NCBI GenBank assembly: GCA_000091205.1
Contig: AP006501.2
DNA: 64,000 bases
Source: Cyanidioschyzon merolae
Lineage: Eukaryota
Direction: 5' to 3' (one strand)
Shown here: positions 1 to 62,859 of the stretch, one piece after another
Position numbering within the stretch: the stretch's first letter is position 1
Layout of the letters: every line of letters begins with the position of its first letter
Notes under the pieces: generated by a model
The model's database searches: none
The model's input: the letters and a program-made list of their open reading frames with translations, nothing else
What the model was told of the DNA's origin: nothing
Made by a program: the position numbers and the translations under genes

Positions 1-1849
1 TCCATCACCTTCCCAGGGATGAAGCATTCGTCGAGAGCCAATGGTGAACTTGGATGGACCGTTTCGATACAGGGTGCCGACGAGGTCATGAGGAAGGTCG
101 GGTAAGTCCAGTACGTAGGAGTCCTCCTCGTTCATATCGCCGTGCGCTAGCTCCCAGGATCGACGATCGAAAGCACTCAGCGACTGTGTTTTACCTGGTG
201 CCGAGGTTAGCTGGCCCTGTTCACGAACCGTGTTGGTCGCTCCGCTTTCCTGGGAACTCAGATGTGTCGCACCGCCGCTGCGAGCAGGCCGAAGGCTTCT
301 TCTCTTCAGTCTGCCACATTGGAAAGTAGCGGTGGCGTTCACACTAGCGCCCTTCCAGTGCCTGAGTGCACCGTTGCCGACCACGAAGGCAGTCTTATCT
401 CCAGGATGCAAATTCATACTGCAATGATATTATACGAGTTTAATCACTGGACCAACGAGTCCTCAAACGTCGTATAGTGGCCTGCGCACGAGTCCCTTCG
501 ATGCTGTAGCGGGAACATGCGCGTGATAGAATGGACTACGAGTCAGAGGTATGCATTTGCTCGAAGGATCGATCACAGGATGCAGGGGCGATTTGTACAA
601 ACCCTTCCAGACCTAACATTTCTGTATATCATAGAACAAGCGTCACGCACGGGCATCCCGCATATGCGAAACGCGCAGCGGCGGCCTATAACCTCATTGC
701 GGGCGATGCTTGATGACCCACGATGTGCGTGTCTCGAATGGGATTTTCCCAGGAGATGCCGTCCATATCGGTTCTTGGAGGCGAGATACCTCCTCTTCAG
801 CAGACAATTCTGCATTCTACTGCCGCAGAACCGGTCTTCTCGTAGGGGATAGTTGTTCGGTGCATCCAAAGGTCCACCTAGCGCCCAGGCATGCGTAGGC
901 GATTGCTGTACCACCGTCGCGGTCGCTGACTTCAGCCAGTGCGGCTTCGCGGTGCCTTGAGAGCCCGCACTGCGTTCTATTCTCGGGCACGAGCATTGCA
1001 CCGCACTCAATGCCCGTGGACGCGCGAACGCTGCCGATAATTTTCTACTGGATTCGCGTATCGCTTAGAATACACGCTCTGATTTTTTCCATATCGCAAA
1101 CGATCGCCTCCATGAAGCAACTTTGTCGCTCACGAAGCATCCGAAAGTGACCGTTCCTAACATGCCTTCGATAATCCTGCTCAAGATCAAGTACGGCTTG
1201 AGGAAGCGAGCGGCGCGAACGCCTTTCGATGCCTCGCGCGTACGCACATGATCCCTTCCTATCTGCGCAAGATCGATGAATCTGGACAAAACTCCTCACG
1301 GACACGACGATCGAAAAAGACGTGCACACAGTCTCAAGTTTCTCGATACGCGCACGCATCTGCAGGCCATGATCACGTAATCGGAACGCTTGCACTTTCT
1401 TCACTGTGTTTCCCCTGCCCTCATGTATTCCATGCCCTGAGATCGCGTGCTTCGTCATCGCATGCCGCGCATCCCCATGAGGTATCCGGATGCTGCGCTG
1501 CTGCATTCCCCCGAGGGGGCTTTTCCTCTCCATTCGCTGCCTGATGCAGAACTAGCGTGCGTCATTGAGACTGCACCAGAACCTTGCCTTCCCCGCACGG
1601 AAACAAGTCGTCGACATATGTTATCGGTATGCAACGCGAGATGGTCTATATCGTCTTGAGCAAGAAACACCGTACATAAAGCGAGCAAATTCGAACACGA
1701 TTTCCATGATACCCAGCGACGATCGTTGAGCGAGCGCGCGGGGCGCCACACCTGTGGATCTGGTAGTAGTGTCGGTACCCGCGCTGCAGGTAACGTTTCG
1801 TGTACCCAAACTGCAGACTGAGGACCTTGTTTCCAAAGCTTTTCTCATA

Positions 1850-7199: not shown

Positions 7200-7900
7200 A
7201 AGGCGACTAGATACCACCATGCAACGGTGAGATGCATCTGGTACAAGGCACCGCGGAACGAACGCACGAGACGTTCGACTGCGTTCGTATAGTCAGCACA
7301 ACGGAAAACGTTCTGCAACCCTCGAGGGTATACGTCTATATATGTACTCACGTGCAGACGCCTATCAGCCGTTTTTTGACCTGCCACCTGCTATCGGTTT
7401 TAGTTTATCCAGGCACACTTTGAGTCTGAGAAGCTGAATAACAAAGTTGGATGGTGTCCGCTTCTCGGGTCTGGTCTTCAGCACCGCATATCCTCTAGTA
7501 TTGGTGGTGGCGTTCAAGTCTCCGTTCAAGGACGCCAAGCATTTGTATAGCCTCTGCTGGTTGCACGGACGAGTGCAAGAATAGCTAGCGTTTGCGCCCT
7601 CTGTGCTAATAAAGTCTCGTCGGCAAACATCTTTTCTCGCGTAGCTCCGCTCTTCTCCTTCTTTTTGCCCTACATCATTCGATAGTCGACAAGAAGAGTT
7701 TTTTTGTCGAACCTGGCGATGACAGGCCTCCGGGATCCCCGACTTGCATGTCCATATCTTTCCCTTGGATTTTCATTTCATCAAATGAACGTACGTTGAA
7801 CGCGTCTGCTATAAACCTCGAAAAAGCGTTTAGTCACACGCACTTAAGGCTGGAACACATTCGAGGCGAAAGACGATAACAACCGAGCCACCAGCTTGTC
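7200..7900 (+). repeat. Dispersed non-coding repeat, family A, copy 1 (about 700 bp)
   Basis: Shares collinear similarity of about 70-80% with 22380..23080. Shared strings include cagtttatccaggcaca, gagtctgaga.gctg, and tcgacaagaagagtttttttgtcgaa versus tcgaggagaagagttttttgtcgaa. It has no conserved ORF. Boundaries are approximate. Confidence 0.5.
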
Positions 7901-10505: not shown

Positions 10506-10670
10506 AACGTTTGCACTCACGCGTTGAGCATCGGGAAGTGAAGGCACAGCTGGAGCAGTCGCACTGGAAGAGGTCTCACAGTGCGGAGAGACGACGCGGG
10601 AACTGCCTCATACACGCTGAACACACAGGCGGTGGCGATTTGAATATGCGTGTTGACGCGCGTCGACAGC

Positions 10671-10937
10671 GGAGCGTTCATGCGTGCAGGTCGGCAGCAG
10701 CGCGTACTGCGTCCTGCTCGGGGTATGCTGTATTCAGCGTGTGTGAAACGACTGGATGCACCGGGCTCGTGCTTCGTAGTGAACGCTGGAGCTGGACTGG
10801 ACTACCGCGGAGCGTTCATGCGTGCAGGTAGGCAGCAGCGCGTACTGCGTCCTGCTCGGGGTATGCTGTATTCAGCGTGTGTGAAACGACTGGATGCACC
10901 GGGCTCGTGTTTCGTAGTGAACGCTGGAGCTGGACGG
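10671..10937. repeat. Tandem duplication, 2 x about 138 bp with a truncated second unit, in the RAD52/translin divergent intergenic region
   Basis: The unit starts ggagcgttcatgcgtgcagg(t/c)(c/a)ggcagcagcgcgtactgcgtcctgctcggggtatgctgtattcagcgtgtgtgaaacgactggatgcaccgggctcgtg... and is repeated almost exactly at 10671 and 10809. It yields the internally repeated ORF 10650..11012. Confidence 0.8.
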
Positions 10938-12013
10938 ATCCGACGTTCCGAAATATCGACATGTACACTGCTGTGGATATTGTCGTTATTGTCGACGGAC
11001 TGGGCACGATGAGGTGAGATGATTTTTCAAGGATGCTTCCTGGATATGCCCCCTTCCAGAGAAGGCGAAGACGCCATCGCTGTTCTGCTGCCTCTAAGCA
11101 CTTCGATGCAGCTCGGAGGTATGTGAATTTTTTGCAGGGCGCCGTACGCGACCCCTGAGGGAGGAGTTGTCGCCCGGAACACGATGGTGGACGACGACGC
11201 ACCGTAAGCGTCGCTCGTGATAGCAAGATTTGGCGTCATGCTCGGAAGGTCGCATCGCCGTGGCGAAGCGATCGTGTCGAGCCCCTCGTTTCATGCTGTA
11301 CGATCGATGAGACTCAACAGAACATCTCGGATGTGCGAATGGATTTGGCAATCCCAGGAAAACGACCAGTGCGTCTCACCGGGCGCTCCTGTGTTTGACT
11401 AGACTCAGTCGCGCCCTCAAGGTACGTATGGACGAGGCTTTGATCCGAGGATGCGCTGGCAGCCGCTGAGCGCCCTGGATCCAAGGCGCTTGCTCTGCCG
11501 ATTGCGCATCATGCTCCGCAATCTTGATGCTATCGATGCCATAAAGCAGAATGCTTGGCATTTTTCAGCCAACGCAACAAATGCTCGCCGAGAAAACCTT
11601 CGAACTGGTCCGTGGGCCTGAACGCTCCCTCGTTTGCGCTACTGAAATACCTGTCTCTGAGCGTTAGCAAAAATATGGGCGCGACCTGATGACCTGAAAC
11701 GTTGAGATGCAGCGGCGTTATCGCCACCGAGCAGGACGCGCCCGTTGTCTGTATGGTGCCCTTTAAGTTCATCGATTGTGATGCCAAATCATGCGCATCA
11801 TCAACGATGTCTATGCCACCGAAAAAAATCGCACACCAGGCTGTGCTCCGAGGGCGCATCACGTCCCGAATGTGTCGAAGACAATCGCGTCGAGGAGCGC
11901 ATGCCTGGGTGTTTCGCACGCTAAGTTCGCCGAGCGCTCTGGTTTTCGAATATGGGGACTGTGGACTAGCACCTGGCACAAAGCCCGTCTTTTTCCTCGA
12001 AACAGTAGGCAGC

Positions 12014-22379: not shown

Positions 22380-23080
22380 TGCGAATACGCACTCTGGATA
22401 GACGTACGGCTTCGAGTGGATGCAAAGCGAGGCGTCTCAGGTCTGTGGGGCAATGCGCATTGCCAATACGATCGGGAAAACGAACAATGTCCAGCGACGA
22501 TGCAGGGTACATGAATAGACTCCCGTGGACGGCTTCCAGTCATTTTTGAACGGCCCGATGCCATCGGGTTCAGTTTATCCAGGCACAGTGCGAGTCTGAG
22601 AGGCTGCTTCACAAAGTCGGCTCGCGTCAGCTCCTCAGATCTCGTCTTCAGGACCGCAGCTTGTCTGGTCAAGAGTACGGCGTCAAGGCTCGGGTCACGA
22701 ACGCCATATGTTTCTTGCCTCGCGTTGAACTCAGCCATGGAGGGAGTCCTAGAAAACGTGCCCGCTGTACGACTAGAGTCTCGTCATCGTCTCGTCGGGC
22801 AAACACCTTTTCTAGCCTATCTCCGCTCTTCATCCGCATCACTTGCACTTCTTCGCTCGATCGTCGAGGAGAAGAGTTTTTTGTCGAAACTGACGATGAC
22901 GGTCCTTCAGGATCCCGGATTTCCATCTCCGTACCTTTCTCTTGGGTTTTTTGTTTCCTCAAATGGACACACTTTGAACACATCTGTTATAGACCGCGAA
23001 TATACACTTCATGACACGCACCCGGAAACGGAACACCATTACGGTAAAAGACACCAGCGTACACCGCTGCAGCTACCTTG
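22380..23080 (+). repeat. Dispersed non-coding repeat, family A, copy 2
   Basis: Collinear with 7200..7900 (see that feature). Same orientation, about 15 kb away. Confidence 0.5.
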
Positions 23081-24555
23081 GCTAGCTATGGAGCCCCAGA
23101 CCGCATCCCGGTATAACCACGTCGCTCTATCCCTGTGCAGCGACATGTGTGATATGAGGTCTCGTTCGAGGGCGTCGCGAATGATCCCGATGACGATGCC
23201 GTAAAGAATTCCACTGGTCGAGAGTCGAGCGAGCCTGCCCGAACAAATGTACTGCGAATCTAAGAACTGGATGAGTCCTTGGGCACTTGTTGCTCTACTT
23301 TGAACATCGAGGTTGTACATAGAAAAAAAGAGGTCGAAAAGAAATCCAAATGCTGGGGCAGAGCGAGCAGCTCGTTATCCCGTTCTAATCTGACACGAAC
23401 GCAGATACATCACAGGTGTCGGTGATCCGGTCGAGGACGTCAGCGCTTCCGGAGCCTCGACACAGCGCCACGTTCAGCGACCCCGTGTTCCTTTACAATG
23501 GAGACGTTTTTCATGTATCCGCTGAATCCCTAGATTCCAAATCCATCAAAGTCGGATAGAACCAGATGATTTGCAGTACTCGGGATGGCGTCGGCTCAGG
23601 CTTGCCAACACCGCACCTCGTATGGAATGGATGCGCCTCGGCCATGCGACAACCGCGGGCACGCAAGCATACCGCACGACATTCACGTCGACGGACATAA
23701 TACTCGTGAACCAGCCTTTCTCCATGAAGCTGCACCCAATTACGATCGTGTGTATCACGCAAGCATCGATTCGTGCCCGTCTAATGCACCGGTGCAGGGC
23801 AGTGCTGTGTCGTGCGAAGTTCGTGGAAAACGCACCGGCCTCTGGGGTGCTGGTAGCATCCTGCTCTTCGACTGTAGCTTTTGAGAGATGTGCACGTGAT
23901 CGCGCTGGGTCAAGTCGATCCATACCGAGCGCCCGCCCAGGTTTTTCGCGTAGACAGGATCGGGGACCACAGCCATGGATCGATCGATGCGAAGTCGACG
24001 AGATCGCTCCCGAGCTACAGGGACGTGCATCGGGCTTCCTCGACGAGACTTGGCCAGTGCTCGCTGACACATGCTGGAAAACGAAATCCGGGGATCGAAC
24101 CAGCCACTGAGACATACATCGAAAGAGAATGGAAAAACTGCGAATCCACGAGCGGCCCTATGTCGGAATGCTCCCGTCAGAAGCGGCAAGGACAGCGCTG
24201 TGACGCATCCGTCACGATCCAGATCTCGACACGCTGACCGCGGCTCCAGCGCATCTGACACAAGATACCCTAATTCATGCCGAGCTTCCAAACGCTGATG
24301 TACTTTCTTCGAACGAGTCCTCCGTGAATTCATCGTTGTCATGCCGCTCCGATCGAAGCAGACGCAGGTTTGCATGCAGATCTTGTTCGGTAGGAGCGCG
24401 AGTCCCATTGGCGTGCCGACGGCCGATCAAGCATCGATGGTGCCTCCCAAACCCCGTGCAACGTGAATCACGCCTCTAATAAACACCCTCAAGGATAGAA
24501 ACAAGCTGTTCTGCCTCCGTGCTGCGTCCGCAATGGCGCGATAAGCGTCGCAGAG

Positions 24556-30092: not shown

Positions 30093-33000
30093 ACAACGGG
30101 CGAGCGCGCGATGCGTGCAGGTACGACGTATGCGCCCGCTGGGCATGCAGCAGCAGCGCCGTCGACGTCGACGCCGCTGATGCCGTCGACGGCGACGACG
30201 ACGGCAATGCGGCACGCCTGGCAGCAACGGTCTTGAGACCAAGGCGGTGTACCGCCTGACCCCATGTCCGCGGACTTGTACACGAAGCGGGCTGGGATTA
30301 GAGGCCGGTAACGCCGGCAACCTCAAAAGGCGCCGAAACGCCCTGCAAGTGCCGGCACTGGTGACCGCGGAGCGCCAACTGCCGCTTGGTGTGCTCAATG
30401 ATCCTAACGCTGATGATCCTGCTATTGCAGTTTTCATAGCAGCTCGGCAACCGCGCTTTGGTAAGGAGCAAAATCGTCAAAAGCCGGCAGTGATCGCTGT
30501 CGCTGCGGTTGCCGCATCACCTCTTGGTATCGCGAATGGCGTCCTTGATGCCATTGTCGATGCACTCGTGGACGTCGTTCGACGTCTGGATCCCTCGTTG
30601 CCGTCGACATCGGTCCATGAGCGAGCGATTCGAAGGTCGATGGTTGCAGCGATAGGGCCGAACCCTGCGACTGCAGATTACGGGTTCGTCACGGTTCGTT
30701 CGGATGTGCTGAAAGCGATTTTCTTGCCGTGGGCGGAACGCCCGCATGTCGGCCTGTCACGCCGCTGCTATTTTGTTCAGGATATTCAAAACGATGTGCA
30801 TTCAGTGATTTGTCGGAGCCGACGTACGCGTCTATCCTTTACGGTTTTGGCGCAGCGTCTGACGGGGCGTCACCGGAGCCTGGCGAACCCGTTACCAGCG
30901 ACACGTGAGTCGCACGGTATCCAGTTCCCGTTGCAAGAGTGGCATCTTCGACTCGCGCCTCCTGTTTACGAACGATTGCGCTGCATTGGCGTTGGACAAG
31001 TTGAGTTGACGCGCGTGCTTTTGCCGCGCGTGCCGATCACATCTCGCGAGGATATGCGTCATTTTTCCTACATCGTTTTTGGAGTGATTGAGAGTGTGGG
31101 CGTTGTCTGATGCAATGCAGACCGGGGGTTTCCCCAGCCCTAGTGTGCAACGCGTTCCAAAAGACGTGTTCTGCTTGATGGACACTAAGCGTTTTGATCA
31201 GCGGCCGACTTGTTGCATCGTACGCGAGTCCCGGTGCCAGAGCGGAGGCAGCCTTTTCCGCCAGCCTGTGTCAATGGAGATGTGCTTTAGCGGGCTCGCG
31301 TCTGCTGACCTTGATTCCAGTTTAGTGCGCTTTCGGCATGAGTCTGTGAGCAATTCATCACCGGACGAGATCAAGTGTTTCCCCTGCCTATCCAGCGCTG
31401 CGAGTGATTGCATGCGCAAGTTGCCTCGCGATAGAACAATAGGAGACTTGAAGAACGTCTGCTTCGAGCTTGCGACATGGAAGGAAAACGCAAGAATCGG
31501 GGCCTGTACATATAAATGGGTTTTCATATCGATTACTGTACGAAGCCTTGCACGAGGGCATCGCTCATCATCATCATGATACCAATCACGTAACGTTTCC
31601 CAGCGACAGAGCGTCGAAGGAGCCACTCCGAAAAAATCGGTCTATCATCGTGGAACTAGGCGTGAATCCGTAAATCCTAATTGCTGAACTTGGATTATCA
31701 AGGCTGTCCGAGTATAAAATCAAGTTCCGAAAATCAACGAAAAGCAGGAGTAGAACGAGCAGTCCAGTTATCTCGTTTTATCGGAGCCGCGCGCATGGTG
31801 GATGCGCTTCTGCAGCGTGTTTGCGTTCGGTCCGTTAGCGCGCGTTGCGAGGCTTGCGTTCTGATTTTATGAAAGCTGGTGTTTCTCAGGTTATTGTAGA
31901 TACGTTTGTGGTGGCTTGTCTCGGTCTTGCCGGAGCCATTATTGGTCTGGAGTACGCTTTGGACGGTGACGAAGCCGCCTGCAGCGAACTCACCAACGGC
32001 AAGGACGAGGTTGCCGACGATGCCGTTCGGGCACACGTGAGTGCAACGTGGCGCAGCGCTGCACTTTCGCGGGGTAGCGCAAGTGCCTGGCGGGACCTGA
32101 AACTGTTTTTAGACGAGCACGTCGCACCGGAGCTACCCAAGATGTTCCGTTTGATCGGACAGCATTGGCTGACCCCGAAAACTGCCTGGTTGTGGTCCGT
32201 GGTAAGCAGCTGGCGGGCAATCGCCTGAAAAGATGCGAGTTTCGAGCTGCGAGGCAAAAGCTGCGGCAAATTAGACTCGAAGTCACGACCTTAGGATGGC
32301 TTTCTTGGGCTCGTGTTATGAGACGTACGCGCTGTGGCACTGAGACTGAACTGGACAAAGTAGAACCAACTGCGCTACTACATCCAATGATTTCAGTTCG
32401 CCGTGGTCTACGTCTGCACCCCATAGCGTCGGGGGTTCGTTGCACCTGCGGCGCGTGCGTTTGTTTGTGCTCGCTTGCGTACGCTCTTTTTCACTAACCG
32501 TTTCAGCATGGTGTCACTTGTATTGTGCAACTTGATTGGATTTGCACCTTTTTGGACAGGTACGGCCTCGGTGCGCACCTTGTTGCGCAGATGGGATGCT
32601 TGCTTCATGACGTCAGTGCTATGATCCCTTGTCGTGAGGTACAGATGCGCATGAAGCGATAGCGCCCTTTGGCGGGTGCACGGTTGGTGTGCCGGAATGT
32701 GCACTCATCTGGTCAGCGTAAATTTATCATGCGGCATGCTTGCACCCAAGTCGACGTATACACGGACGAGCACGACCTTGCCTCAGTTATTTTTGGGGTA
32801 CGGAGTAGGGCGCTGCATGATCGTGTAGACGAACCGGGGGATTCCCGATTGCGCCATGGTTATCGGTATCCGCGAAAGCGTTCATCATTCTGCACGGGAC
32901 CGCCGCGTTTCAGGAGCCAATGCCGATAACTTCTTTTCGGAATTAGGGTTTGTTCGTCCAATTTTCCTGGTGCCGAGCGCCTGCCGTGTGCGCCCACTAT

Positions 33001-34331
33001 GTTGCCACTAGCGTCGATATGGTTATCGCATGGCAACGGAGCGGCTTTTCCATACCATGATTGAAGAAAGCTCGAGGCATGAGCCTGCTTGTACACGCCC
33101 GCGGGCTCGCGGAACGCGTCCCTCACGGACGACTCGGATATGCACTGGCACCGGAGCTGGTGTATTTGCAGCTGCATACCCAATCGATGCTCTTTCGCCT
33201 ACGAGCTGGTGCGTCACATAAAAAGCAAACGAAATTACTAGGTACCGTCATATCTTCGGGACGGCACAGCGTTGCAGGTTGGTCGAGCAGTCGCCCAAAC
33301 TTTGGTGTGAGGCGACGCGGGTCGACGGACAACATAATGGTAACGTCCGACATGCTGCGGTTCCTGGAGGGTTTCGCCGTTTTCCTGGACGGCGTAACAG
33401 GGAGCACTCGTGATTCAAGCTGACACCGAGACAGCGGCCCCACGCGGTCACTTTTAGACGTCCATGGTAAGTGCCATAAAACAGTGCGAGGCTCTCACGC
33501 AGATCCGTGTCGATGATGCTACCAGATACGTTTGCTCATCAGCTTGGCCGCTCTTTCCGACGTTTCCGTGGCCGTATCCACCTATTCGATGTCCATTGGC
33601 AAGCACATTTGGTCATAGAGCACTCGCTAGCAAACAGCATAGCACAGCACTGCAGATCCTCGGCAGTTCTTGGAGCACCGCTCACACCGGTGACGCATCG
33701 CGAGTGCGCACCGCATCCTGTGCCTCGTGCTGAACTAGGTCCGTTTGATCGCATGGCATTCGCGAAAGACGCATGCAGATGGTGTGTATCGCGTTTGGCA
33801 GAGGGCTATGTTATTCAAACCAGTGAACCTGAAACAGTCTGTCATTGAGATGTTTATCGACAAACGCGTGGATGCGGCATCCTATCGTTCGCGGAGCGTC
33901 CTGTCATAGTGCCAGCGAAGAGTCGGAACTCTTACGCGAGCAGAGCTGCATTCGTTTTATTTTGCAAGCAGCCCCGGTCCGTGCAGCTGCTTGCATTCTT
34001 CCGCAGATTTACATCCATCAAGGAGCGTCAAATCGTTCCTGCTAAAGCGCACAGAAACGTCGCGCGAAAGCATGTATCCGAGGATGTCGGGTGACTCCAA
34101 CGGCGAACAAGATCCCAGCCATTGCCGCCTACGATACGATTTGGGTAAGGCGCTTATGGAAACAGGTCGGGCCGATGCAGCCCATTTATGCACAGGCACT
34201 TGCTCTTCGTTGTGTTGACCTATAGTGCAGTCCACTGCTATTGCAATGTTCATGCACACATGCTCCAGATTATCTACCGAAATCATGGGGGTAGGCCGCA
34301 GCGTAGTCTCCAGAAAGCTCATGGAACAGTT

Positions 34332-35456
34332 TCATGGATGAATAGTATCTTTGAATTCAAAGAACGAGTCATGCATGCGAATGAAAGAGTACTCCTCGCA
34401 TGACCCACAACACCCGTATAAATTAGGTTCTTTGTGAAAGATAGCGAACCCGGCGTGCATAAAACCTTGGAAAAACTCATCCACTTCTGGGATAGAGGCG
34501 ATACCCGCGTGCACTTCGATAAGGACTTGATTCACGTGCCGCAGCGCGTGCCAGGTTCTCAAGGCATATTGCTCTTCAGAGCTGAGTTCACGTTGGCTCC
34601 GTCCTTGGCGAAGGAGCTTGTCGGCTGCCCGGAACGCTCCCAAGAAAGAGGTGAACTCACCACCCTCGATATCGATCTTGAGCACCTCGACGACGTTTGG
34701 CAGCTCCAGGTGACCCAATCCAGACATGATCTCCGCCAGCGAATTGTTGCTCTCAGCCGGGCCAAGCGGCCGGCGAAAAAAACGAACGCGTTCCAGAAAG
34801 CTCTCGGAGTGCATCGCAGATGGTGGCGATGATGTTGGGTCAAAGACGAAAAAATCGCAGTCCGGCAAGCGTTCATGAAGCTTCGTTTCGAAACTGAAAT
34901 CGTTGTTGCTACCAAAACTGTACACAATGCAGCGATACGGGAGCCTGAGCTGCTCACGAAACAGCCGTCCCCGGTTCAGGATAGCAGGTGGGTCGCACAC
35001 CCATTTGCCACCGTCTCCGTTGTTACCGATCCGTTCCTCTAAGGCACAGCCGATATCCGGTTCCCAGTTATTGTAGAAAAAAACCGACGGGTTCGGTTCG
35101 AGGGTAACGGTCTGGCGCTTTCGCTGACGTCGTAACCGAATCCTCCGTTGGGCCCAGAGCGCGTCCGACTCGCACCAGAAGCCGAGCGACTCTTTCAGTG
35201 CTCGCGTGTCCTTCGAAGTCACTGGTAGGGTCCGGTCCCAAATCTCCGTCAGGGTTTTCGCGTTGCGCAAAGAGCTCCCACGACGAAGAGCCCTCGACAC
35301 GGAGCGAACGCAGCTGTCATCCACGGCGGGAAGATCCGCGCGCTGGACACCACTAGAGCGTCCGTTGAGAACACTAGTAGCGCGGTATATTACGATAAGA
35401 GCATAAATAAGAAAAGTCAAAGCCCCTGAAGCGATGCACGGTTTTCGCCACGTCAT
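34332..35456 (-). CDS. FkbM-family (Methyltransf_21-like) methyltransferase domain protein with an N-terminal hydrophobic anchor
   Basis: Shows ...CIVYSFGSNNDFSFETKLHERLPDCDFFVFDP...LKIDIEGGEFTSFL.... The first 80 codons of the track ORF 34332..35696 are a frame-shifted read of the element copy-1 3' tail (GRPLKVELYEKK echoes [12 protein letters not shown] of copy 2). I therefore place the start at the first ATG outside the element, 35456 (MTWRKPCIASGALTFLIYALIVIY). Confidence 0.5.
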   Translation of the reverse strand: MTWRKPCIASGALTFLIYALIVIYRATSVLNGRSSGVQRADLPAVDDSCVRSVSRALRRGSSLRNAKTLTEIWDRTLPVTSKDTRALKESLGFWCESDALWAQRRIRLRRQRKRQTVTLEPNPSVFFYNNWEPDIGCALEERIGNNGDGGKWVCDPPAILNRGRLFREQLRLPYRCIVYSFGSNNDFSFETKLHERLPDCDFFVFDPTSSPPSAMHSESFLERVRFFRRPLGPAESNNSLAEIMSGLGHLELPNVVEVLKIDIEGGEFTSFLGAFRAADKLLRQGRSQRELSSEEQYALRTWHALRHVNQVLIEVHAGIASIPEVDEFFQGFMHAGFAIFHKEPNLYGCCGSCEEYSFIRMHDSFFEFKDTIHP

Positions 35457-35489
35457 GCCGGCCACTGAAAACAAACGTCTTTCAAAAGA

Positions 35490-38400
35490 AAAACGCTGCC
35501 GCCAACGGTGTACAGTAGTTACGGGAAACGCGCCGTAAGCAAATCGTCTCCAGCTGAGGTGCAGACGCATCCCCGTCTTTTTCGACCGTCCACCTACTAC
35601 GTCTTTCATTTTCTTCTCATATAATTCCACTTTGAGAGGTCGCCCCACAGGTTCTCTCGTGTCGAATCTGGAGGTCTTTTCTCCAGCACCGCACATCTCC
35701 TGATATTGATAGCGACATTAAAGTCTCGGTTCACAAACTCCATGCGTTTCTTGCCATCTTTGGTTGTGCTTACTAATGCAAGTAGCCCACGAACTTTCGC
35801 CCTCCTTTCCATTTGCTCCTCCGTCAGCGGTCCGTACTTTGCTATTTCGTCAGGGCTCCTCTGGCACTTTTCCATCTCGATCCTTTGAAGTGTACAACAC
35901 AGTTCATGGTGTGTATACGATGTTCGGAACTCATCTACAGGTATTGTAACTAACCTGTCTGCACACCCCTTGTACGTTCTTGTCGTTGGAGCTCGTGTAC
36001 ACTCTTTTTCAGACGCCTAGCGCCCTGCTCCGTATGCTACTACCAGCCTTTGACTTTCATCCTCTTTGAAGGCACTCAGCTGACTGAAAAAGTTCGCGAA
36101 CGCACACTGCTTGCCACCGTATAGATTCATACGCAATCGAGGCCACCGGGGCTTTGTATACTCTTTCCACAGTGCCTCCTAATGAGCAATACGAACTTTC
36201 ATGAACTCCCGAAAAGCTTGAAAATCTGCTCCGCGGCTCGTCACCTCGCTCAAAGCTTCCAGGTGCTCTTTCATTCCTGCATTGCATGTCTCGTTTTTCT
36301 TCCTCGTATTCATCACACCGGATTCTCGATAGTATCTCGCTCTCGGGAACCTCAAAAGACGCATGTCTTTCTGAATGAAGTTGCCGTCTGGACCATATTC
36401 CGCACGCCTGGGTACAGCGATGGCTGTGACATTCGTATTCCCAGGGTCCGCGCCAACGACAAAGTCGTTATACTTCCTTTTCTGTGTGGCACAATCCGCC
36501 TCCTTCTCATCTTCATACCTCGTCACGTCAACGACAACGTCGTCATCCTCTACCTCTTGCGTAGCAGGATCCGCGTCTTTGTTTTCCTCATCCTTCGTGA
36601 CGGGCGCAGCCGAGGACGGAACTGGCCGAGCTGCCTTCAACCGCCGATAGTCTACACACTAGGCTACTCCATCGGTTTCGATCATCCCCGTGAATACCTT
36701 TTGCTTGCTCGTTTTGAGACGTTTGAAATCGAAGATGTTCTTCCAGTACGTCTCCCTGGTTTCACGGGTGAACTCTCTTTTCCTAAAGTTGAACTCCGGA
36801 CTGATTTCCCTCATGATGCCGTAAAGGACGCCGGAGTCGATAGTCACATAATGTGACTTGATGTTGCACAACGGAACGACGTTGAAGCGCTTCCCCATTA
36901 GGAAAGCCTTCTGTCTCTCCCACTCTTCATTCTTGTCCTCACTCGGCTTCATCTCCGCCTTGCGTTCGAGTTCACGGTCCAGAAACACGAAATAGCGCAG
37001 GATGAGGCGATAATGTCTTTCCTTATCTTTTTTCAACTCTGATACCTTTGCTGCTTGATTCGCCAGCCCCAGTACCGCACGGTGCTCTTGTATAGGCGCA
37101 CGGATTACAGAAGCTTCATTCGTGCTCCTGTGTGACGTCTTCTCATCAACGAATTCGATCTCATCTTCATGCTTGCGATCGTTCGTGATGCCATCGATAA
37201 TCGCCCATATTCCTTTGCGAGAGATGCCCGGATAGAGTGCAAACACCGCGCGTATGATGAAACGTTGGAGCTTCATGGTCATATGGTTCCTCAAGTTCGT
37301 GACGTACGTTTTCATCGCCCCGTAGGTGTAAACACTCGAGTCACCCCTGTATCGAGCACCGCCGAAGCGGGATTCGGTGTGGTTTTCGTGGAGGGCATGC
37401 ACTAGCTCATTTTGCTTCCGCGTTTCCGCTGTACCAAGCATCAGATGGCGAATAAAAGTCTTGTCGAATAATTCTTTCCGAACTTCGACTGTTTAGATGT
37501 CCGTCACGTCGCGATACATCCTCTTCACCAAATGCATGAGTCCTGAAGAGGCCTTTACAATACTCAAGGAGTACGACTCGTCATGGGTTCTGATAGCCTC
37601 CCGCACTTTTTCCCTGTACGGATCCTTGATATGTCCAAGAATACAGACTTTCACTACTGTCTCGTCGTACTGTCGTCTTTCTTGCAGCCATTGGCGTCGG
37701 GCTTCCATCTTTTGCTTCTTGGCCCTCTCCAGTTCCTGTGGACTCGGCACTGTTTTTCGGTTTTTTTTCTGGAAACCGGCGACACACTGGGCCTCCGGCA
37801 TCCTCCACTTCCACTTACGTACATTTCCTTTTTATTTTTTTGAAAAAGGAACCCCCTTTGACTGCTTCTTCTATGAACCGCGAACAATGACTTGAATACA
37901 CTCTCTTGAGAGTTGAAACACAACGGAATCGAAAAAATATACTTTGCTACGGCTTCAGAGCGAATACTACTCGTACATTAGAGCAGAATGCTAACGATCA
38001 GGATCGCGTTTCACTTCAACGGCGAGAAGCACGTCATGTATCATGCCCGCCAGATATGGAGATACGCGCATCGACCATGCTACACAAAAAAGGAAGAGAA
38101 ACTAGCAGTTCAATTGCAACGAGATAACGATTTCTTCTCCCTCTATGATACATATTAAAAGGGAGGCAAGATTTCCATGTAGTCGAAACTTTACTTTCCG
38201 GGCGGAAGGCCCTGCGAGCCGGACGAGTCTGCTAGACCAGTCCTTCATGATCTTCCCAGTGCTCAGTGCTGTGGTGATATTCGAGCAACTCGACCGAAAC
38301 GCAGTTTATTCTCGGGCCGGGGACGGGTATGCTGCGTCTGGGCATCGCGCTGGTCGCAGTGGACTCCTACAAAGTCGTTTCGCGCCACACTACACTGTAC

Positions 38401-38575
38401 CTCTGTCTGCGCAGAGTGCATGCTCCCAGGATGATATTGAATCCCGACCACGTTTCAGGTGAAGCTTTCCTCGATCCGAATCCCTCAGTGGTATGGCAAA
38501 GCCGCTCTGCCTCTATGATGCATCGGCATCAGCCGTATAAGCGCTTTTGCTGGAGGTCAAAGCGGGCACTCGGCG
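35490..38575 (-). mobile_element. TnpB/Fanzor-like RuvC-nuclease element, copy 1 (more decayed), inserted between the divergently transcribed FkbM-like and O-methyltransferase genes
   Basis: An about 3.08-kb block collinear with 58620..61636. The 5' 1.7 kb is about 99% identical between copies and the 3' 1.2 kb about 80-85%. Similarity stops at ...gggcactcggcgc (38575) and fades out near 35490. Confidence 0.6.
35606..37801 (-). pseudogene. Disrupted Fanzor/TnpB-like ORF of copy 1
   Basis: ORF0 37493..37801 (basic N-terminus, KKNRK / RAKKQK). In-frame TAA. ORF A 36659..37441, ending at a TAG where copy 2 has CTG. Fragment 36179..36640 carries RuvC-I ([11 protein letters not shown]). A gap at 35875..36179 lacks an ORF. 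Fragment 35606..35875 carries RuvC-III (NRDFNVAINI). Confidence 0.6.
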
Positions 38576-38794
38576 CACTTTAGTACTCACAAAACGATCC
38601 GTATATCCGAGAGGAAGTAAGCGTCATGGAACTTGAGGATAGGGTGCATCATGATGGACACTTTTTCGATTATTAATCCACATCCCGCAATTTGCGATCC
38701 AAGTACAATCTGAGCGTTTTGTCAAACCGAAAAGAAATCACCATGGCTGCAGACGCCCCCGGCGTGCTCACGAGTTGTTCAGCTCAGCGCCTCT

Positions 38795-47573: not shown

Positions 47574-49352
47574 CGACAGGTGCCTTGTCCGTTTAGCTGC
47601 GTTCGCGTTGCCCCTCAAGACGCAGAAACGATTGCGTCGCGACAACCAAAGTCGTCCCTGTACAGATAGCAGGGTGCGTACGCGTGACACCTGCCGCCCA
47701 CCTCGAGTCGAAGCGAAACGAATCGCTAAGTTTGCAACCCGAAATTCACTCTGTATCGAGCGCTGTCCGGTAAACCAGCCGACTCCTGCGTTCCGGCAGT
47801 GAGCAACGAAACATGCGTGCTGCATAGAGCGCCGATCCGTGCACACAGGCGTTCTGGGCATCAGCGCGCGCTGATCTTCATCCATGCGGCGCTGTCGCCC
47901 GCCAAGTGATGGTGATACCGCATCGCTGCACGTAAGCAGGATTCCGTCGAATGCTTGATTGCTATCGATCACTAGGGAGCAGCGTAGCGTTTCGCGCTAG
48001 CCAATGCCAGGTTCCAAGAAACTCGCGCAAGACTCGTCGTTGGGATGGTGGATAGATCGATGTATCCGGGGAAACGCCGGGTTGCTACGCGGTATGTGGA
48101 CGCTGAATGCGCCGCCGCTTCGGACGCCATTCAGGGACAAAACAGCGTAAAGTCGCTTTTCGACAGGCTTCAGCTTGAGGCAGTCAGAATCTTTTCGCTT
48201 CGTCGAGCGCGTGCTCGAGTCGACGCCCACACAAGGGTATGACAAAGCCGTTCTGGCTGCGTACGGTATCCGCGACGGCGTTAGAGGCACCGCAGAAGGT
48301 GCGCGCCGGAGGCTTGGCACGCAGCGCCTCCCCGGAGCTTACCGTGATGCCTGCGAACGCGTGTGCGCGCGATCGCGTTGCTGCCGATGCCGCATGTGAT
48401 GATTCCCTTTATGCGAATACGCCGCAGCTACGGGATACACGGGACAGCGCAGCCAGGAATGAGCACGGGTTGAGAGCCAGATATTTACCGCTGGTCATCG
48501 AAGCGCTCAAGCTCTCCGATGCGCGGCACCATGGTGACCGCGTATCATGGAATGCGCGACCCGACCAGAGAAAAGAGAGCATCAGCGTCGTCCGATTTGG
48601 GTCCAACGCGATCCCCGATAATCCTGCCAGTCGGTGAGATACTCCCAAACATGCGCATTGATCCGGGGGCACTGGTCATGAAAAAAAAAAGCGAATTTCG
48701 AGACAAAATCATCCCTGACGATCACGCTTCACCATGAACGCACTTCTCTGCGCAGTTGCCAGACGTTCGCACGAACGCAGCGCACCAGTTCGAGCGCTTC
48801 ATAACAGGGGCTTGAACTCGTGGCGCCCGCCAGCGAGGCAAACTCCTCACATCAGAGCTCATTCTCGATGCTTTGCTGTACTCTACAAAGTCTGTTTTGG
48901 AACTTTGGACGCGGGTTACCCATCGGCAGCAGATGCGCTTTTGGGAGATTCCGGGGAAACGCACCAATCATAGGTCGGAAAAACGTGCCGCGCTTCGAAC
49001 TGCGACGCAATGCAGTGCGCCCCGTCACGCGGGCATCTCGTGGAACCTGGCAGCTTCGGGAAGGAGTGGTTGTTGCGTTCTGAGACGCCCACAGGCCTTG
49101 GGGCTATCAGGGTCGACTGGTGCGTTCTTTGAAATTGGACCATATAAAATAACTCTGGCAAACCCGTACAGAGAGCGCTGAGGCACTCGCGACGTTTGTT
49201 TTTCGAGGTCGCTGGGGAGGTGCGGCTGTGGCTTGCGCTTGCGCATCAACGTCTAAGAACAGTCTGTTTGCGGCACTTCGAAAGAAAACTTTGCAGCCGA
49301 TCGGCACAGAGCGTTTCACAAATCGATCCCAATCTCGGAAGCACTGAACTGG

Positions 49353-56792: not shown

Positions 56793-57659
56793 TGGATATG
56801 AGTATAATGGCCAACTCGAGTGGCGAGCTGTGCATCCATGTGGCGGTGAACGAGTCCCGAAACGGTCGCTTGCTGAATACAGTCTACCTGTGGTCGACTT
56901 GTGCGCTGTTTCGGGCGCTTCGCAGAGTAGTCTCTGCTTATGCGTGCTCTGTCGGTCCGCCAATGCGGCTCGCGTCGAAGAGGGTATACAGCTGCTGAAA
57001 ATGTTCACCACGGTCGGTGTTCAGAAGTCTCTGCTTGTGCGTGCTCTGTCGGTCCGCCAATGCGGCTCGCGTCGAAGAGGGTGTACAGCTATTGGAAATG
57101 CTCGCCTCGGTCGGTGTTCAAAGCATCTGCGAGGAGGCCCTGCTGCCGTCCCAAGCGCAACAAATGCCCCAGTTCCGATCGTAGGAGCCATCCCGTCGCA
57201 GGTGCGCTGGTTTCACGCTCATTGACTGTTTTGACGGCGACGCGCTGGCGTGCAGCACTTGGTGACCCATGGGACGCTTCCAGACATCCGCGGTTCCGTT
57301 CAGCGCTTGCCTTTACGCCGTCCTGGTTCAACGGGAACGTCAGTCATCTCGAAACGGCAGCGTGTACCTACTCTGGTTTTAGGCTTCACGAGCGTGGATG
57401 AGCGGCTCACTAGTCGCTGCCTTGTCCCTAATGCGTCAGCATTCCACTTCCACGTGTCGAGCGTAGCACGTTAGGGTCTCCCTATCGCTAACTCGAAGCT
57501 GGTCCCCGGAAGCAGCTCTCTCCAACAGAGCCGCATCCCAGCTGAGGAATCAGCGCAACAGTTACAGCGACCAGGCGTTCACAACTCACTGTGCTCTGGG
57601 GGACTGCAGAACACGCAAGTCCATGGAATACTCTGGTTAATGGCGTGCAATCAAGATCA

Positions 57660-58619: not shown

Positions 58620-58740
58620 CTACGCTCTGATGTCGGGCGTCGCCACCAGCGGTGTAGAATAGTGGCGAGAAAGTCGACCCAGAAAAATCGTTTCTAGCTG
58701 TCGTGCAGACGCCTCCCCGTCCTTCTCGACCGGCCACGTA
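58620..58740 (-). ncRNA. Candidate omega-RNA (guide RNA scaffold) region immediately 3' of the RuvC ORF stop codon
   Basis: The non-coding sequence 3' of the stop is conserved between copies for about 110-120 bp (for example gtgcagacgc.tccccgtc, aaatcgt.tc.agctg). It ends where the unrelated host flanks begin. This is by analogy with TnpB/Fanzor loci only. Confidence 0.25.
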
Positions 58741-59856
58741 CTACTGGTTCCATTTTTTTTCATATAGTTCCGCTTTGAGAGGTTGTCCAAGAAAAAGCTC
58801 TCGTGTCCACTCTGAAGGTCTTCTTTCCATCACCGCACATGTCCTTATATTGATAGCGGCATTAAAATCTCGGTTCACAAACTCCATACGTTTCTTGCCA
58901 TTGACTGTACTTAATAATGCGAGTAGTCCTCGAACATTCGCCCACCTTTCCATATGCTCCTCCGTCAGCGGTCCGTACTTTGCTATTTCGTCAGGGCTCC
59001 TCTGGCACTTTTCCATCTCGATCCTTTGAAGTGTACAACACAGTACATGGTGTGTATACGATGTTCGGAACTCATCTACAGGTACTATGACAAAACGTCG
59101 TGCGTACTCCTTATACGTTCTCGTCGTTGGAGCTGGTGTACACCCTTTTTGGGTCTTCGAGCGCGCTGCTCCGTACGCCACTACGAGCCTCTGACATTGA
59201 TCCTCTTTGAGGGCACTCAACCCATTGAAAAAATTCGCGAACGCCCGTTGCCTCCCACAATATAGATTCATACACAGACGAGCCCACCGAGGCTTTGTAT
59301 ATTCATTCCGCAGCGCATCCCAATGAGCAACACGAACATTCATGAATTTCAGAAAAGCTGTAAAGTCCGCTCCGCGGCTCGTCACCTCGCTCAAAGCTTC
59401 TACGTGATCCTTCATTCCTGCATTCCATGTCTCAATTTTCTTCGTTGCATTCATGATTCCCGATTCTCGATAGAATCTTGCTCTCGAGAACCTCAAAAGT
59501 CGCATGTCTTTCTGAAGCAAGTTACCGTCCTTACCATCTTCGGCACGCTTGGGTACAGCGATGGTTATGATATTTGTGTTTCCGGGGTCCGCGCCAACGA
59601 CAAAGTCTATCTCATGCACTTTCAGTGCCGCAGGATCCGCGTCTCTGTTTTCCTCATGCTTCGTCATGGGCGAAGCCGAAGGCACGATAGGAAGAAACGC
59701 CTCCAAGCGCTTGCAGTCTACACACAGGGCTACTCCATCGGTTTCGATCATCCCCGTGAATACCTTTTGCCTGCTAACTTTTGAGACGTCTGAAATCGAA
59801 GAGACTCTTCCAGTACGTGTCAGGGGCTTCGCCGGTGAACTCTGTCCGCCTTCCAT
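58741..59856 (-). CDS. Element ORF B: TnpB/Fanzor-type RuvC nuclease domain with a degenerate zinc-finger insert
   Basis: Ruv[20 protein letters not shown]. Ruv[29 protein letters not shown]/Zn-finger remnant H..CC....C. Ruv[23 protein letters not shown]. The order and spacing are as in TnpB/Fanzor/Cas12. It continues the ORF A reading frame after the +1 shift (shared ...[13 protein letters not shown]). Confidence 0.65.
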
Positions 59857-60508
59857 CGAACTCCGGACAGATCCCCTTCATGATGCCATGAAGGACGCCG
59901 GAGTCGATAGTCACATAATGTGACTTGATGTTGCACAACGGAACGACGTTGAAGCGCTTCACCGCTAGGAAAGCCTTCTGTCTTTCCCACTCTTCACTCT
60001 TGTCCTCACTCGGCTTCATCTCCGCCTTGCGTTCGAGTTCACGGTCCAGAAACACGAAATAGCGCAGGATGAGGCGATAATGTCTTTCCTTATCTTTTTT
60101 CAACTCTGATACCTTTGCTGCTTGATTCGCCAGCCCCAGTACCGCACGGTGCTCTTGTATAGGCGCACGGATTACAGAAGCTTCATTCGTGCTCCTGTGT
60201 GACTTCTTCTCATCAACGAATTCGACCTCATCTTCATGCTTGCGATCGTTCGTGATGCCATCGATAATCGCCCATATTCCTTTGCGAGAGATGCCCGGAT
60301 AGAGTGCAAACACCGCGCGTATGATGAAACGTTGGAGCTTCATGGTCATATGGTTCCTCAAGTTCGTGACGTACGTTTTCATCGCCCCGTAGGTGTAAAC
60401 ACTCGAGTCACCCCTGTATCGAGCACCGCCGAAGCGGGATTCGGTGTGATTTTCGTGGAGGGCGTGCACTAGCTCATCTTGCTTCCGCGTTTCCGCTGTA
60501 CCAAGCAT
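59774..60508 (-). CDS. Element ORF A: N-terminal (non-RuvC) half of the Fanzor/TnpB-like protein
   Basis: ATG confirmed at 60506..60508. It is 244 aa and about 95% identical to copy-1 ORF A (36659..37441). It ends at a stop created by a +1 insertion relative to copy 1 (aaaagttagcaggcaaaagg versus aaaacgagcaagcaaaagg). Confidence 0.55.
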
Positions 60509-60559
60509 CAGATGGCGAATAAAAGTCTTGTCGAATAATTCTTTCCGAACTTCGACTGT

Positions 60560-60883
60560 TTAGATGTCCGTCACGTCGCGATACATCCTCTTCACCAAAT
60601 GCATGAGTCCTGAAGAGGCCTTTACAATACTCAAGGAGTACGACTCGTCATGGGTTCTGATAGCCTCCCGCACTTTTTCCCTGTACGGATCCTTGATATG
60701 TCCAAGAATACAGACTTTCACTTCTGTCTCGTCGTACTGTCGTCTTTCTTGCAGCCATTGGCGTCGGGCTTCCATCTTTTGCTTCTTGGCCCTCTCCAGT
60801 TCCTGTGGACTCGGCACTGTTTTTCGGTTTTTTTTTTCTGGAAACCGGCGACACACTGGGCCTCCGGCATCCTCCACTTCCAC
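60560..60883 (-). CDS. Element ORF0: basic (NLS-like) N-terminal segment of the Fanzor-like protein, separated from ORF A by an in-frame TAA present in both copies
   Basis: Reads ...KKNRKTVPSPQELERAKKQKMEARRQWLQERRQYDETEVKVCILGHIKDPYREKVREAIRTHDESYSLSIVKASSGLMHLVKRMYRDVTDI. Copy 2 has an A10 run where copy 1 has A8, which shifts the N-terminal frame. The in-frame start is GTG. Confidence 0.45.
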   Translation of the reverse strand: MEVEDAGGPVCRRFPEKKNRKTVPSPQELERAKKQKMEARRQWLQERRQYDETEVKVCILGHIKDPYREKVREAIRTHDESYSLSIVKASSGLMHLVKRMYRDVTDI

Positions 60884-61710
60884 TTACGTACATTTCCTTT
60901 TTATTTTTTGAAAAAGGAACCCCCTTTGACTGCTTCTTCTATGAACCGCGAACAATGACTTGAATACACTCTCTTGAGAGTTGAAACACAACGGAATCGA
61001 AAAAATATACTTTGCTACGGCTTCAGAGCGAATACTACTCGTACATTAGAGCAGAATGCTAACGATCAGGATCGCGTTTCACTTCAACGGCGAGAAGCAC
61101 GTCATGTATCATGCCCGCCAGATATGGAGGTACGCGCATCGACCATGCTACACAAAAAAGGAAGAGGAACTAGCAGTTCAATTGCAACGAGATAACGATT
61201 TCTTCTCCCTCTATGATACATATTAAAAGGGAGGCAAGATTTCCATGTAGTCGAAACTTTACTTTCCGGGCGGAAGGCCCTGCGAGCCGGACGAGTCTGC
61301 TAGACCAGTCCTTCATGATCTTCCCAGTGCTCAGTGCTGTGGTGATATTCGAGCAACTCGACCGAAACGCAGTTTATTCTCGGGCCGGGGACGGGTATGC
61401 TGCGTCTGGGCATCGCGCTGGTCGCAGTGGACTCCTACAAAGTCGTTTCGCGCCACACTACACTGTACCTCTGTCTGCGCAGAGTGCATGCTCCCAGGAT
61501 GATATGGAATCCCGACCACGTTTCAGGTGAAGCTTTCCTCGATCCGAATCCCTCAGTGGTATGGCAAAGCCGCTCTGCCTCTATGATGCATCGGCATCAG
61601 CCGTATAAGCGCTTTTGCTGGAGGTCAAAGCGGGCACTCGGCGCCCGATAGAATATACAAAAAGACTAGTACGTCCGAAAGGAGGTACCTTTCATGGAAC
61701 AAAAACGTAG

Positions 61711-62859
<1,149 letters not shown>

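Follow-up and report, generated by a model that had tools for sequence, protein, structure and literature searches.

The closest described relatives of the repeat pair considered here are found in the transposable-element family CMe-1A, which was first described by Bao & Jurka 2013 (Mobile DNA 4:12; PMC3627910) and comprises ~150 copies that share roughly 80% identity with a consensus of ~3 kb. The first 635 bp at the 5′ end of CMe-1A equal TE-N2_CMe, the gene is a single exon that encodes a 734-aa Fanzor1 protein, CMe-1, terminal inverted repeats are absent, and intact proteins are still encoded by some of the copies (PMC3627910). Fanzor1 proteins are TnpB-like RNA-guided nucleases of eukaryotes, and others include that of Spizellomyces punctatus, SpuFz1 (PDB 8GKH; Saito et al. 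2023, PMC10432273). The window analyzed here is the whole stretch of 64,000 nucleotides from Cyanidioschyzon merolae contig AP006501.2, and it contains a pair of ~3.2 kb repeats 23 kb apart, both on the minus strand, as are all of their features given below. The C. merolae genome is known as repeat-poor.

Family identity and layout of the repeat pair

The two repeats are very probably old, dead copies of CMe-1A and hence of a Fanzor1 transposable-element family. Aligned over their full length to the 3,169-bp consensus of CMe-1A that the supplement to PMC3627910 provides, copy 1 (35476..38724) is 82.6% and copy 2 (58642..61797) 84.0% identical to it, the former covering consensus positions 4-3169 and the latter 1-3147 with the final ~20 nt diverged. 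The window copies share with the published family the host genome, the 5′ TE-N2_CMe module, the single-exon ORF of 734 codons and the lack of long inverted repeats, and their 83-84% identity falls within the published ~80%; nothing categorical distinguishes them from CMe-1A, apart from the window pair being decayed.

In both copies a non-coding 5′ module is followed by the ORF region. The module, equal to TE-N2_CMe and corresponding to consensus 1-647, lies at 38080..38724 in copy 1 and its counterpart at 61148-61797 in copy 2, and it is separable, since copies on two other contigs start at consensus ~648. The remnant of the Fanzor1 reading frame extends from the consensus start-codon position to a local TGA in copy 1 (35606..37820) and occupies 58741..60889 in copy 2. 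Copy 1 also carries 75 extra nt in frame (36472..36546), which encode an additional 25-aa acidic linker unit; this insertion is not a lesion, as the number of linker units varies among family members. The diverged 75-nt units went undetected by Tandem Repeats Finder.

The flanking genes identify the window as nuclear DNA from a red alga, C. merolae 10D. Six flanking ORFs match C. merolae 10D BAM82946, 82952, 82953, 82954, 82957 and 82958 exactly, and five window ORFs with exact matches from BAM82946 to BAM82958 (BAM82952 being a further one) map to the 1,282,939-bp chromosome, with copy 1 occupying the whole intergenic space between BAM82952 and BAM82953. The window holds no inverted repeats of at least 100 nt, short ones having been covered only unsystematically, and no second copy of the neighboring methyltransferase gene, the flanks of the copies show no obvious target-site duplication, and scanning the window for Rfam families and tRNAs gave no hits. 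Exact-sequence look-ups covered five ORFs of the element other than the 153-aa ORF of copy 1, and none of the five is an NCBI-annotated protein; nor did any of the homologues found come from NCBI. No contigs with the exact 454-aa fused ORF or with the paralogue BAM79085 were found, and the contigs retrieved via BAM82953 all end within the repeated 5′ tract.

The ancestral Fanzor1 polypeptide

The ancestral element combined TE-N2_CMe, the ~650-bp non-coding module at its 5′ end, with a single gene of 734 codons that had no intron. The segments that appear in the window as 'ORF A', the 'RuvC ORF' and an upstream ORF of 102/107 aa are pieces of one polypeptide, of which the last is the N-terminus. 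The first-pass annotation had proposed that the element encodes one long protein made of ORF A and RuvC and not two genes; the single continuous ancestral ORF is right, and was already known from the published CMe-1A, although the protein is longer than these two parts. The published consensus reads through the junction of ORF A and RuvC as one 734-aa protein, and environmental relatives of 580-750 aa are uninterrupted across all three window ORFs.

In order, the encoded Fanzor1 comprises a basic N-terminus, a helical recognition region with wedge-type β-strands, an acidic repeat linker and a split RuvC domain with a D-E-D triad. The three triad residues are invariant in the 14-sequence family alignment, and all of their codons are kept in both window copies: the RuvC-I Asp (VVGADPG) at 36446..36448 in copy 1 and 59587-59589 in copy 2, the RuvC-II Glu (VDEFRTS) at 35930..35932 and 59071-59073, and the RuvC-III Asp at 35723..35725 and 58867-58869, respectively. 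The supposed junction is neither a gene boundary nor a domain boundary, and sits within a conserved β-hairpin (FTGxIETDGVxxC) that precedes the linker and RuvC-I.

The relationship to Fanzor1 becomes visible at the level of the family. While a PDB search with a single sequence returned nothing, the family profile matches SpuFz1 (8GKH; E = 2.4e-5) unbroken over 375 residues, across the junction motif and the RuvC domain, and also GtFz1 (9CER; E = 0.009). The AlphaFold model, which is of moderate confidence (pLDDT 69.5), has Fanzor1 structures as all of its seven best PDB matches, over the full length (Foldseek E = 3e-15 to 1e-11), followed in rank by Fanzor2, TnpB and Cas12f. In a Pfam scan of the repaired protein of copy 2, the sole match was to the Cas12f1-like TNB domain and fell below threshold, although distant family members do reach this domain (PF07282); for the precomputed family PF26935 (DUF8286), no mention was found in the literature.

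Judging from the characterized relatives, the protein in its intact form would associate with an omega-RNA whose transcript comes from the element's 3′ end, and would cleave matching DNA. The 3′ 344 nt fold with z = -2.0, RNAalifold on seven sequences gave an unfavorable covariation term (+2.9) with few compensatory pairs, and Rfam yielded no match.

Lesion inventory and mosaic structure

When polarized against the CMe-1A consensus, with the coordinates verified, the two copies together contain about a dozen defects, and the lesions at the junction are but two among these. Shared by both copies are the change of the start codon from ATG to ACG together with that of codon 2 from GAA to TAA (37815..37820 in copy 1, 60884-60889 in copy 2), and a change of codon 108 from GAA (Glu) to TAA (37493..37495 and 60560-60562), which divides the 102-aa N-terminal ORF from 'ORF A'. 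An intron that would account for the shared TAA was ruled out, the consensus having GAA in a single exon and the relatives reading through. An A-run near the N-terminus differs in length, being A8 in copy 1 (37761..37768), where the 4 nt added to the consensus shift the frame, and A10 in copy 2 (60828-60837), where the 6 added nt keep it; two wild orthologues of copy 1 have A9 here.

Beyond the shared lesions, copy 1 has three TAG stops, including the one at the junction, and two frameshifts, and copy 2 has a +1 and a -1 frameshift. The other two stops of copy 1 replace TGG (Trp) at codon 520 (36179..36181) and at codon 574 (36017..36019), the latter being TCG in copy 2, and the C-terminal ~40 codons are put out of frame by a 1-nt deletion at 35650..35652 (consensus 2994). 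A separate 1-nt deletion occurs in copy 2, at about 58760 (consensus 3029). With at least five disabling lesions per copy, three of them shared, the copies cannot repair each other; neither can yield a functional protein, and recombination between them could not restore one, although fragments might still be transcribed or translated at a residual level. Such a pattern is that of ordinary pseudogene decay. The substitution spectrum was inspected for RIP-like hypermutation and has only an ordinary GC>AT bias, with transitions to transversions at about 1.3. The Ka/Ks values of 0.24-0.57 against the consensus indicate past selection on the protein.

The distribution of the lesions follows a mosaic structure of the pair. 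A tract of 1.7 kb (36900..38576 in copy 1, 59967-61644 in copy 2) is 98-100% identical between the copies, ~99% overall, yet the identity of either copy to the consensus there is only 77-89%, and all of the shared lesions fall inside the tract. Its start lies ~150 nt in from the end of the element, and over the terminal 100-150 nt the copies are only 59-90% identical to each other; the junction lies just past the 3′ edge of the tract, where the copies are only ~80% (80-84%) alike. The published description of CMe-1A mentions no such homogenized tract (PMC3627910). Based on these sequence comparisons, the tract is probably a footprint of ectopic gene conversion, which would have homogenized the 5′ 1.7 kb after both copies had inserted, and hence the upstream lesions would be shared. 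Beyond the tract, the copies appear to derive from separate lineages of the family (Ks about 0.35), which would explain why each has junction lesions of its own.

The mosaic might instead be older than the insertions, with two chimeric source elements that shared a 5′ half, in which case the resident copies would not have undergone conversion with each other. The N-terminus of the pair (VEVEDAGGPVCRRFPEK) does recur in a subfamily elsewhere, and one sequence of that subfamily (L011/P0157) is 88% identical to both copies; however, this is the highest identity to any other sequence recovered, against 99% between the copies, and the tract is internal at both ends in both copies, as conversion after insertion would have it. 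A pre-insertion origin is thus improbable, though it is the strongest of the alternatives considered here. Within the conversion model, the tract could also have been left behind when a break directed by the Fanzor-omegaRNA complex of an active family member was repaired, which would make it a case of homing-type conversion in a eukaryote and not of spontaneous ectopic conversion, but we regard this as a distinctly unlikely origin.

The junction lesions and comparison with known systems

At the junction itself, the first-pass annotation had described a TAG in copy 1 opposite a Leu codon in copy 2, and one extra nucleotide in copy 2 that closes ORF A about 70 nt upstream. The former is borne out: copy 1 has TAG at 36659..36661, consensus codon 385, where the consensus has ATG and both copy 2 (59725-59727) and its relatives have CTG (Leu). 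The extra base of copy 2 and its +1 shift are likewise real, but they lie 50-60 nt upstream of the Leu codon and slightly below the interval 59775-59800 to which they had been assigned. The stretch CTCAAAAGTTAGCAGGCAAAAG of copy 2 (59764-59785) is one base longer than CTCAAAACGAGCAAGCAAAAG of copy 1 (36698-36718), and within it copy 2 has CTCAAAAGTTAG (59774..59785) in place of the consensus CTCAAAGCGAGC; the additional base, at about 59776-59782, creates a TAG at 59774-59776 and puts the continuation into the +1 frame. Relative to the consensus, both the extra base of copy 2 and the TAG of copy 1 are derived states.

The two lesions had further been regarded as a reciprocal pair that disables the copies and that, if each copy were corrected with the state of the other, would leave an uninterrupted frame. 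The copies are indeed nonfunctional as they stand, but the junction pair is not what disables them, and mutual correction fails as other lesions remain in both. Copy 2 would become open over 588 codons, but only from an internal Met of ORF A and not over the full ORF, and in copy 1 the TAG codons at 36179-36181 and 36017-36019 and the 1-nt deletion near 35651 would persist. Nor is there anything special in the reciprocal pattern, since differing lesions are expected by chance at ~80% identity.

The overlapping frames of copy 2 bear a superficial likeness to the OrfA-OrfB fusions of IS3/IS1-type elements, which likewise have overlapping ORFs in different frames and an A-rich site. On the model of the OrfAB fusions of bacterial IS elements and of the sites at which yeast Ty elements shift to the +1 frame, a full-length protein could be made from copy 2 by programmed +1 ribosomal frameshifting at A-AAA-GUU-AG, where a +1 slip of the Lys-tRNA on the AAAA run would restore the ancestral reading exactly. 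Such an explanation is nevertheless highly unlikely. The extra base is a derived state confined to the locus of copy 2 and its orthologue, whereas the frame is continuous in the CMe-1A consensus and in all full-length relatives; upstream, the frame contains two TAA stops and lacks an ATG in phase with the ancestral start; and a conserved stimulatory element was not identified. The shift also differs from the IS3/IS1 type in being +1 and not -1 and in having other disabling lesions alongside. An OrfA-OrfB arrangement would be recognized by a frameshift site conserved across the family and by both ORFs being otherwise intact, and this combination was not found.

A sequencing or assembly error at one or both of the junction lesions, which would leave one copy really intact, has an equally slight probability. 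A-runs are a typical place for homopolymer miscalls, and such runs contain both the lesion of copy 2 and the difference in length at the N-terminus. The lesion states are, however, identical in independent metagenome assemblies from other samples: the copy-1 locus is covered by L008, L009 and L010 (99.8%, 98.6% and 97.4% identical, respectively), which hold every copy-1 stop, and the copy-2 locus by L001, which is 98.75% identical without gaps over 7.4 kb. The lesions are therefore not assembly errors, and they are older than the 1-3% by which wild Cyanidioschyzon populations have diverged. Were the junction lesions absent, the start codon would still be lost in both copies, and codons 2 and 108 would still be TAA. 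The idea that copy 1 is functional, with its in-frame stops read as sense or spliced out as introns, draws on its single frame from 37801 to 35606 being broken by only one TAA and three TAG, but can be practically dismissed, as the relatives have four different residues at the stops (Glu, Leu/Met, Trp and Trp/Ser) so that no single reassignment fits, TAG, TAA and TGA all terminate annotated host genes in the window, the family gene is single-exon, and no GT...AG pair at a plausible spacing encloses the stops.

The correct annotation of the locus is thus two pseudogenized CMe-1A (Fanzor1) elements, and not a two-gene module or a set of four to six hypothetical ORFs. The finding is an ordinary one, of little importance past annotation, but it illustrates that an argument from reciprocal lesions can mislead if a single junction is inspected, and as by-products it provides a lesion map polarized against the consensus and a clean example of what is probably gene conversion between dispersed copies of a transposon.

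Among the characterized proteins, the CMe-1 family has the same D-E-D RuvC triad and domain order as SpuFz1, GtFz1 and PpFz1 (9CER, 9CF1), although sequence identity to these is merely 12-15%. CMe-1 differs from them in an N-terminal region longer by ~100 aa and in the variable acidic linker of 25-aa repeats before RuvC-I, and CMe-1A lacks terminal inverted repeats. The likeness of CMe-1 to Fanzor1 is one of sequence and predicted fold, and its omega-RNA and nuclease activity are putative. With the TnpB of IS200/IS605 elements (ISDra2 TnpB, PDB 8H1J), CMe-1 shares the RuvC core and the C-terminal DxNAAxNI motif, but TnpB is a prokaryotic protein of about 400 aa that is paired with a TnpA transposase, and its match to CMe-1 (Foldseek E = 0.08) is weak relative to those of the Fanzor1 proteins.

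Two repeats of the CMe-1A family

Self-comparison of the window reveals two direct repeats of ~3.2 kb each, ~23 kb apart, whose mutual identity is two-tiered at 96.5% across the 5′ 2 kb and 84% across the 3′ 0.9 kb, with a 75-nt in-frame length difference between the two parts. Copy 1 (38724-35476) and copy 2 (61797-58642), both on the minus strand, align end to end with positions 4-3169 (82.6% identity) and 1-3147 (84.0%), respectively, of the CMe-1A consensus and are therefore members of this published family, the Fanzor1 family of C. merolae described by Bao & Jurka in 2013 (PMC3627910). According to that work, CMe-1A comprises ~150 copies, each ~80% identical to a consensus of ~3 kb (3,169 bp in the supplement), encodes a single-exon protein of 734 aa that is still intact in some copies, lacks terminal inverted repeats, and is identical in its 5′ 635 bp to a separate element, TE-N2_CMe. 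The continuous ORF proposed as the ancestor in the first-pass annotation thus has, on sequence comparison, a published identity as the CMe-1A consensus ORF. Six ORFs flanking the elements are exact C. merolae 10D annotated proteins (BAM82946 to BAM82958) of a 1,282,939-bp chromosome; an exact-sequence look-up found none of five ORFs queried from the two copies in the NCBI annotation, and no homologue from the protein search was of NCBI origin.

On two other contigs (L002:4675 and L003:1090) family copies start at consensus ~648 (CGCGGTCGATACGCG) and the upstream sequence is unrelated, so CMe-1A is a composite of TE-N2_CMe and a ~2.5-kb core Fanzor unit. Family debris is unusually dense for 64 kb. 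Short TE-N2_CMe fragments, 65-70% identical and within consensus 28-283, lie at 24446-24531, 32839-33081 (plus strand) and 48214-48313. Two internally deleted relatives of ~530 bp, ~70-77% identical to each other, are found at 7346-7878 and 22519-23049 (both minus strand). These relatives fuse consensus ~790-963 (the upstream region and first ~19 codons) to ~2840-3092 (the last ~85 codons) via a common unique segment of ~110 nt, and may represent a non-autonomous derivative family retaining the 3′ region that would encode an omega-RNA. Tandem duplications unrelated to the element occur at 10666-10938 (~136 nt twice, 97% identity) and 56926-57130 (~100 nt twice, 89%).

Lesions at the junction and beyond

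The two lesions reported at the junction of 'ORF A' and the 'RuvC ORF' lie on the minus strand in both copies. At codon 385 of the consensus ORF, copy 1 has a TAG (36659-36661) versus an aligned CTG (Leu, 59725-59727) in copy 2. At consensus 2007 copy 1 has the ancestral length and copy 2 carries one extra base, as seen from CTCAAAAGTTAGCAGGCAAAAG in copy 2 (59764-59785) aligned with CTCAAAACGAGCAAGCAAAAG in copy 1 (36698-36718). Through this insertion a TAG (59774-59776) arises that closes 'ORF A' of copy 2, and the RuvC-bearing ORF (371 codons) of that copy moves to the +1 frame; the insertion had been placed ~70 nt upstream at slightly offset coordinates, the actual distance being 50-60 nt.

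Both lesions are genuine, as orthologous metagenome contigs, recognised by host genes next to the element that are common to contig and window or by a match to the full extent of the locus, share the states of both loci. Over 7.4 kb of copy 2 plus flank, L001 is 98.75% identical and free of gaps, L008 (99.8%) and L009 (98.6%) have the ACG start, both TAA and all three TAG codons of copy 1, and L010 (97.4%) has the same 106/260/153-aa ORF pattern as copy 1. The lesions therefore predate the 1-3% divergence among wild relatives, and among them only the length of one A-run varies in the orthologues (A9 in L008 and L009 versus A8 in the reference). Recoding of the in-frame stops is ruled out, since host genes in the window terminate with TAG, TAA and TGA and the residues of relatives at the stop positions are mutually different (Glu, Leu/Met, Trp and Trp/Ser).

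With the consensus from the Bao & Jurka supplementary file (PMC3627910) as the reference for polarity, the junction lesions prove to be two of many. Three are shared on the minus strand: the start codon ATG>ACG (37818-37820 in copy 1, 60887-60889 in copy 2), codon 2 GAA>TAA (37815-37817, 60884-60886) and codon 108 GAA>TAA (37493-37495, 60560-60562). The A-run near codon 19, likewise on the minus strand, is A8 in copy 1 (37761-37768), a frameshifting gain of 4 nt, and A10 in copy 2 (60828-60837), an in-frame gain of 6 nt. Copy 1 additionally has TGG>TAG at codons 520 and 574, where copy 2 has TGG and TCG, respectively, and each copy has a 1-nt deletion in the C-terminal region (near 35651 and near 58760). 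The extra 25-aa linker unit of copy 1 is harmless. Contrary to the original proposal, exchanging the junction states does not restore an uninterrupted ORF: repaired copy 1 is left with two further stops, and repaired copy 2 is open for 588 codons, counted from a Met inside the ORF, with the start and first 108 codons still broken. Mutual complementation of the copies is impossible. L011 (P0157) is an environmental paralogue, 88% identical to both copies, whose N-terminus belongs to the same subfamily. It still begins with ATG (MEVEDAGGP...) and has a sense codon at 108, and so preserves the sites of the shared lesions in intact form.

The stop of copy 1 itself is mutated TAG>TAC (35535-35537), which together with a 1-nt deletion upstream results in a 454-aa ORF (34332-35696, minus strand) joining the Fanzor tail to BAM82952, an annotated methyltransferase-domain gene whose start at 35456 is just 20 nt away from copy 1's right end. 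The fused form is used in some metagenome gene calls, and a BAM82952 paralogue on another chromosome, BAM79085, is 98% identical.

A near-identical tract shared by the copies

A 1.7-kb tract, 38576 to ~36900 in copy 1 and 61644 to ~59967 in copy 2, shows 98-100% identity between the copies, whereas each of them matches the consensus here at only 77-89%. Elsewhere, identity between the copies is 59-90% at the 5′ terminus and 45-85% on the 3′ side. The tract crosses the TE-N2/core boundary and, because neither of its ends reaches an end of the element, probably reflects ectopic gene conversion between the resident copies. It is also found in L008-L010 and is therefore old. The sole exception outside the tract, a 100-nt block of 98% identity on the 3′ side (35806-35905 / 58947-59046, surroundings 80-85%), may mark another short stretch of conversion.

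All shared lesions lie within the tract, and the junction is located 180-240 nt past its 3′ edge. Given a Ks of about 0.35 and a Ka/Ks of about 0.4 around the junction, the copies stem from different, once-selected family lineages; the Ka/Ks below 1 agrees with the intact CMe-1A proteins reported (PMC3627910). Independent lesions there are the null expectation, and the 'reciprocal' pattern, real as regards the two lesions, is an incomplete picture that omits the further lesions of each copy, three of them shared. What the loci show is the ordinary decay of two members of an already known transposon family, the probable conversion tract being of minor interest.

A single Fanzor1 polypeptide

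The view that the element encodes one protein and not two genes is correct, yet was already published in 2013 (PMC3627910). When the repaired product of copy 2 was used as a protein query, it matched 92 relatives, mostly from hot-spring metagenomes, including some of 580-750 aa that are uninterrupted through the junction and also across the stop dividing a 102-aa upstream ORF from 'ORF A'. More distant intact relatives (676-731 aa) carry a basic MPPKxKRK stretch at the N-terminus, and a single frame in them spans all three ORFs of the window. The family profile matches the Spizellomyces punctatus Fanzor1 8GKH (E = 2.4e-5, 375 residues aligned, including the junction motif FTGxIETDGVxxC) and the Guillardia theta Fanzor1 (9CER). 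In an AlphaFold model of P0001, the closest long relative (pLDDT 69.5), the junction falls within a β-hairpin (residues 350-370), after which come an acidic, disordered linker and the first strand of RuvC. As relatives, profile and model all run through the junction, 'ORF A' and the 'RuvC ORF' belong to a single folded protein chain.

Diverged acidic units of 25 aa (e.g. ATQEVEDNDFVVDVTKHEDEKEADP) make up the linker preceding RuvC-I, for which disorder is predicted (pLDDT below 50); copy 1 has an extra unit at 36472-36546, copy 2 and the consensus have one fewer than copy 1, and P0001 has four.

The 3′ 344 nt of the element fold with z = -2.0, and a consensus fold of seven sequences gave no net covariation support for an omega-RNA. 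Three acidic residues are invariant family-wide, namely the D in VVGADPG, the E in VDEFRTS and the D in a third, 10-residue motif, and, judged from these sequences, the catalytic triad appears intact in the consensus and both remnants of what is a Fanzor1 family. The best seven PDB matches of the P0001 model are likewise all Fanzor1 (E = 3e-15 to 1e-11), with Fanzor2, TnpB and Cas12f ranking after them. By analogy with characterised relatives (Saito et al. 2023, PMC10432273), a copy that is intact would produce an omega-RNA from the element's 3′ end and cut complementary DNA.
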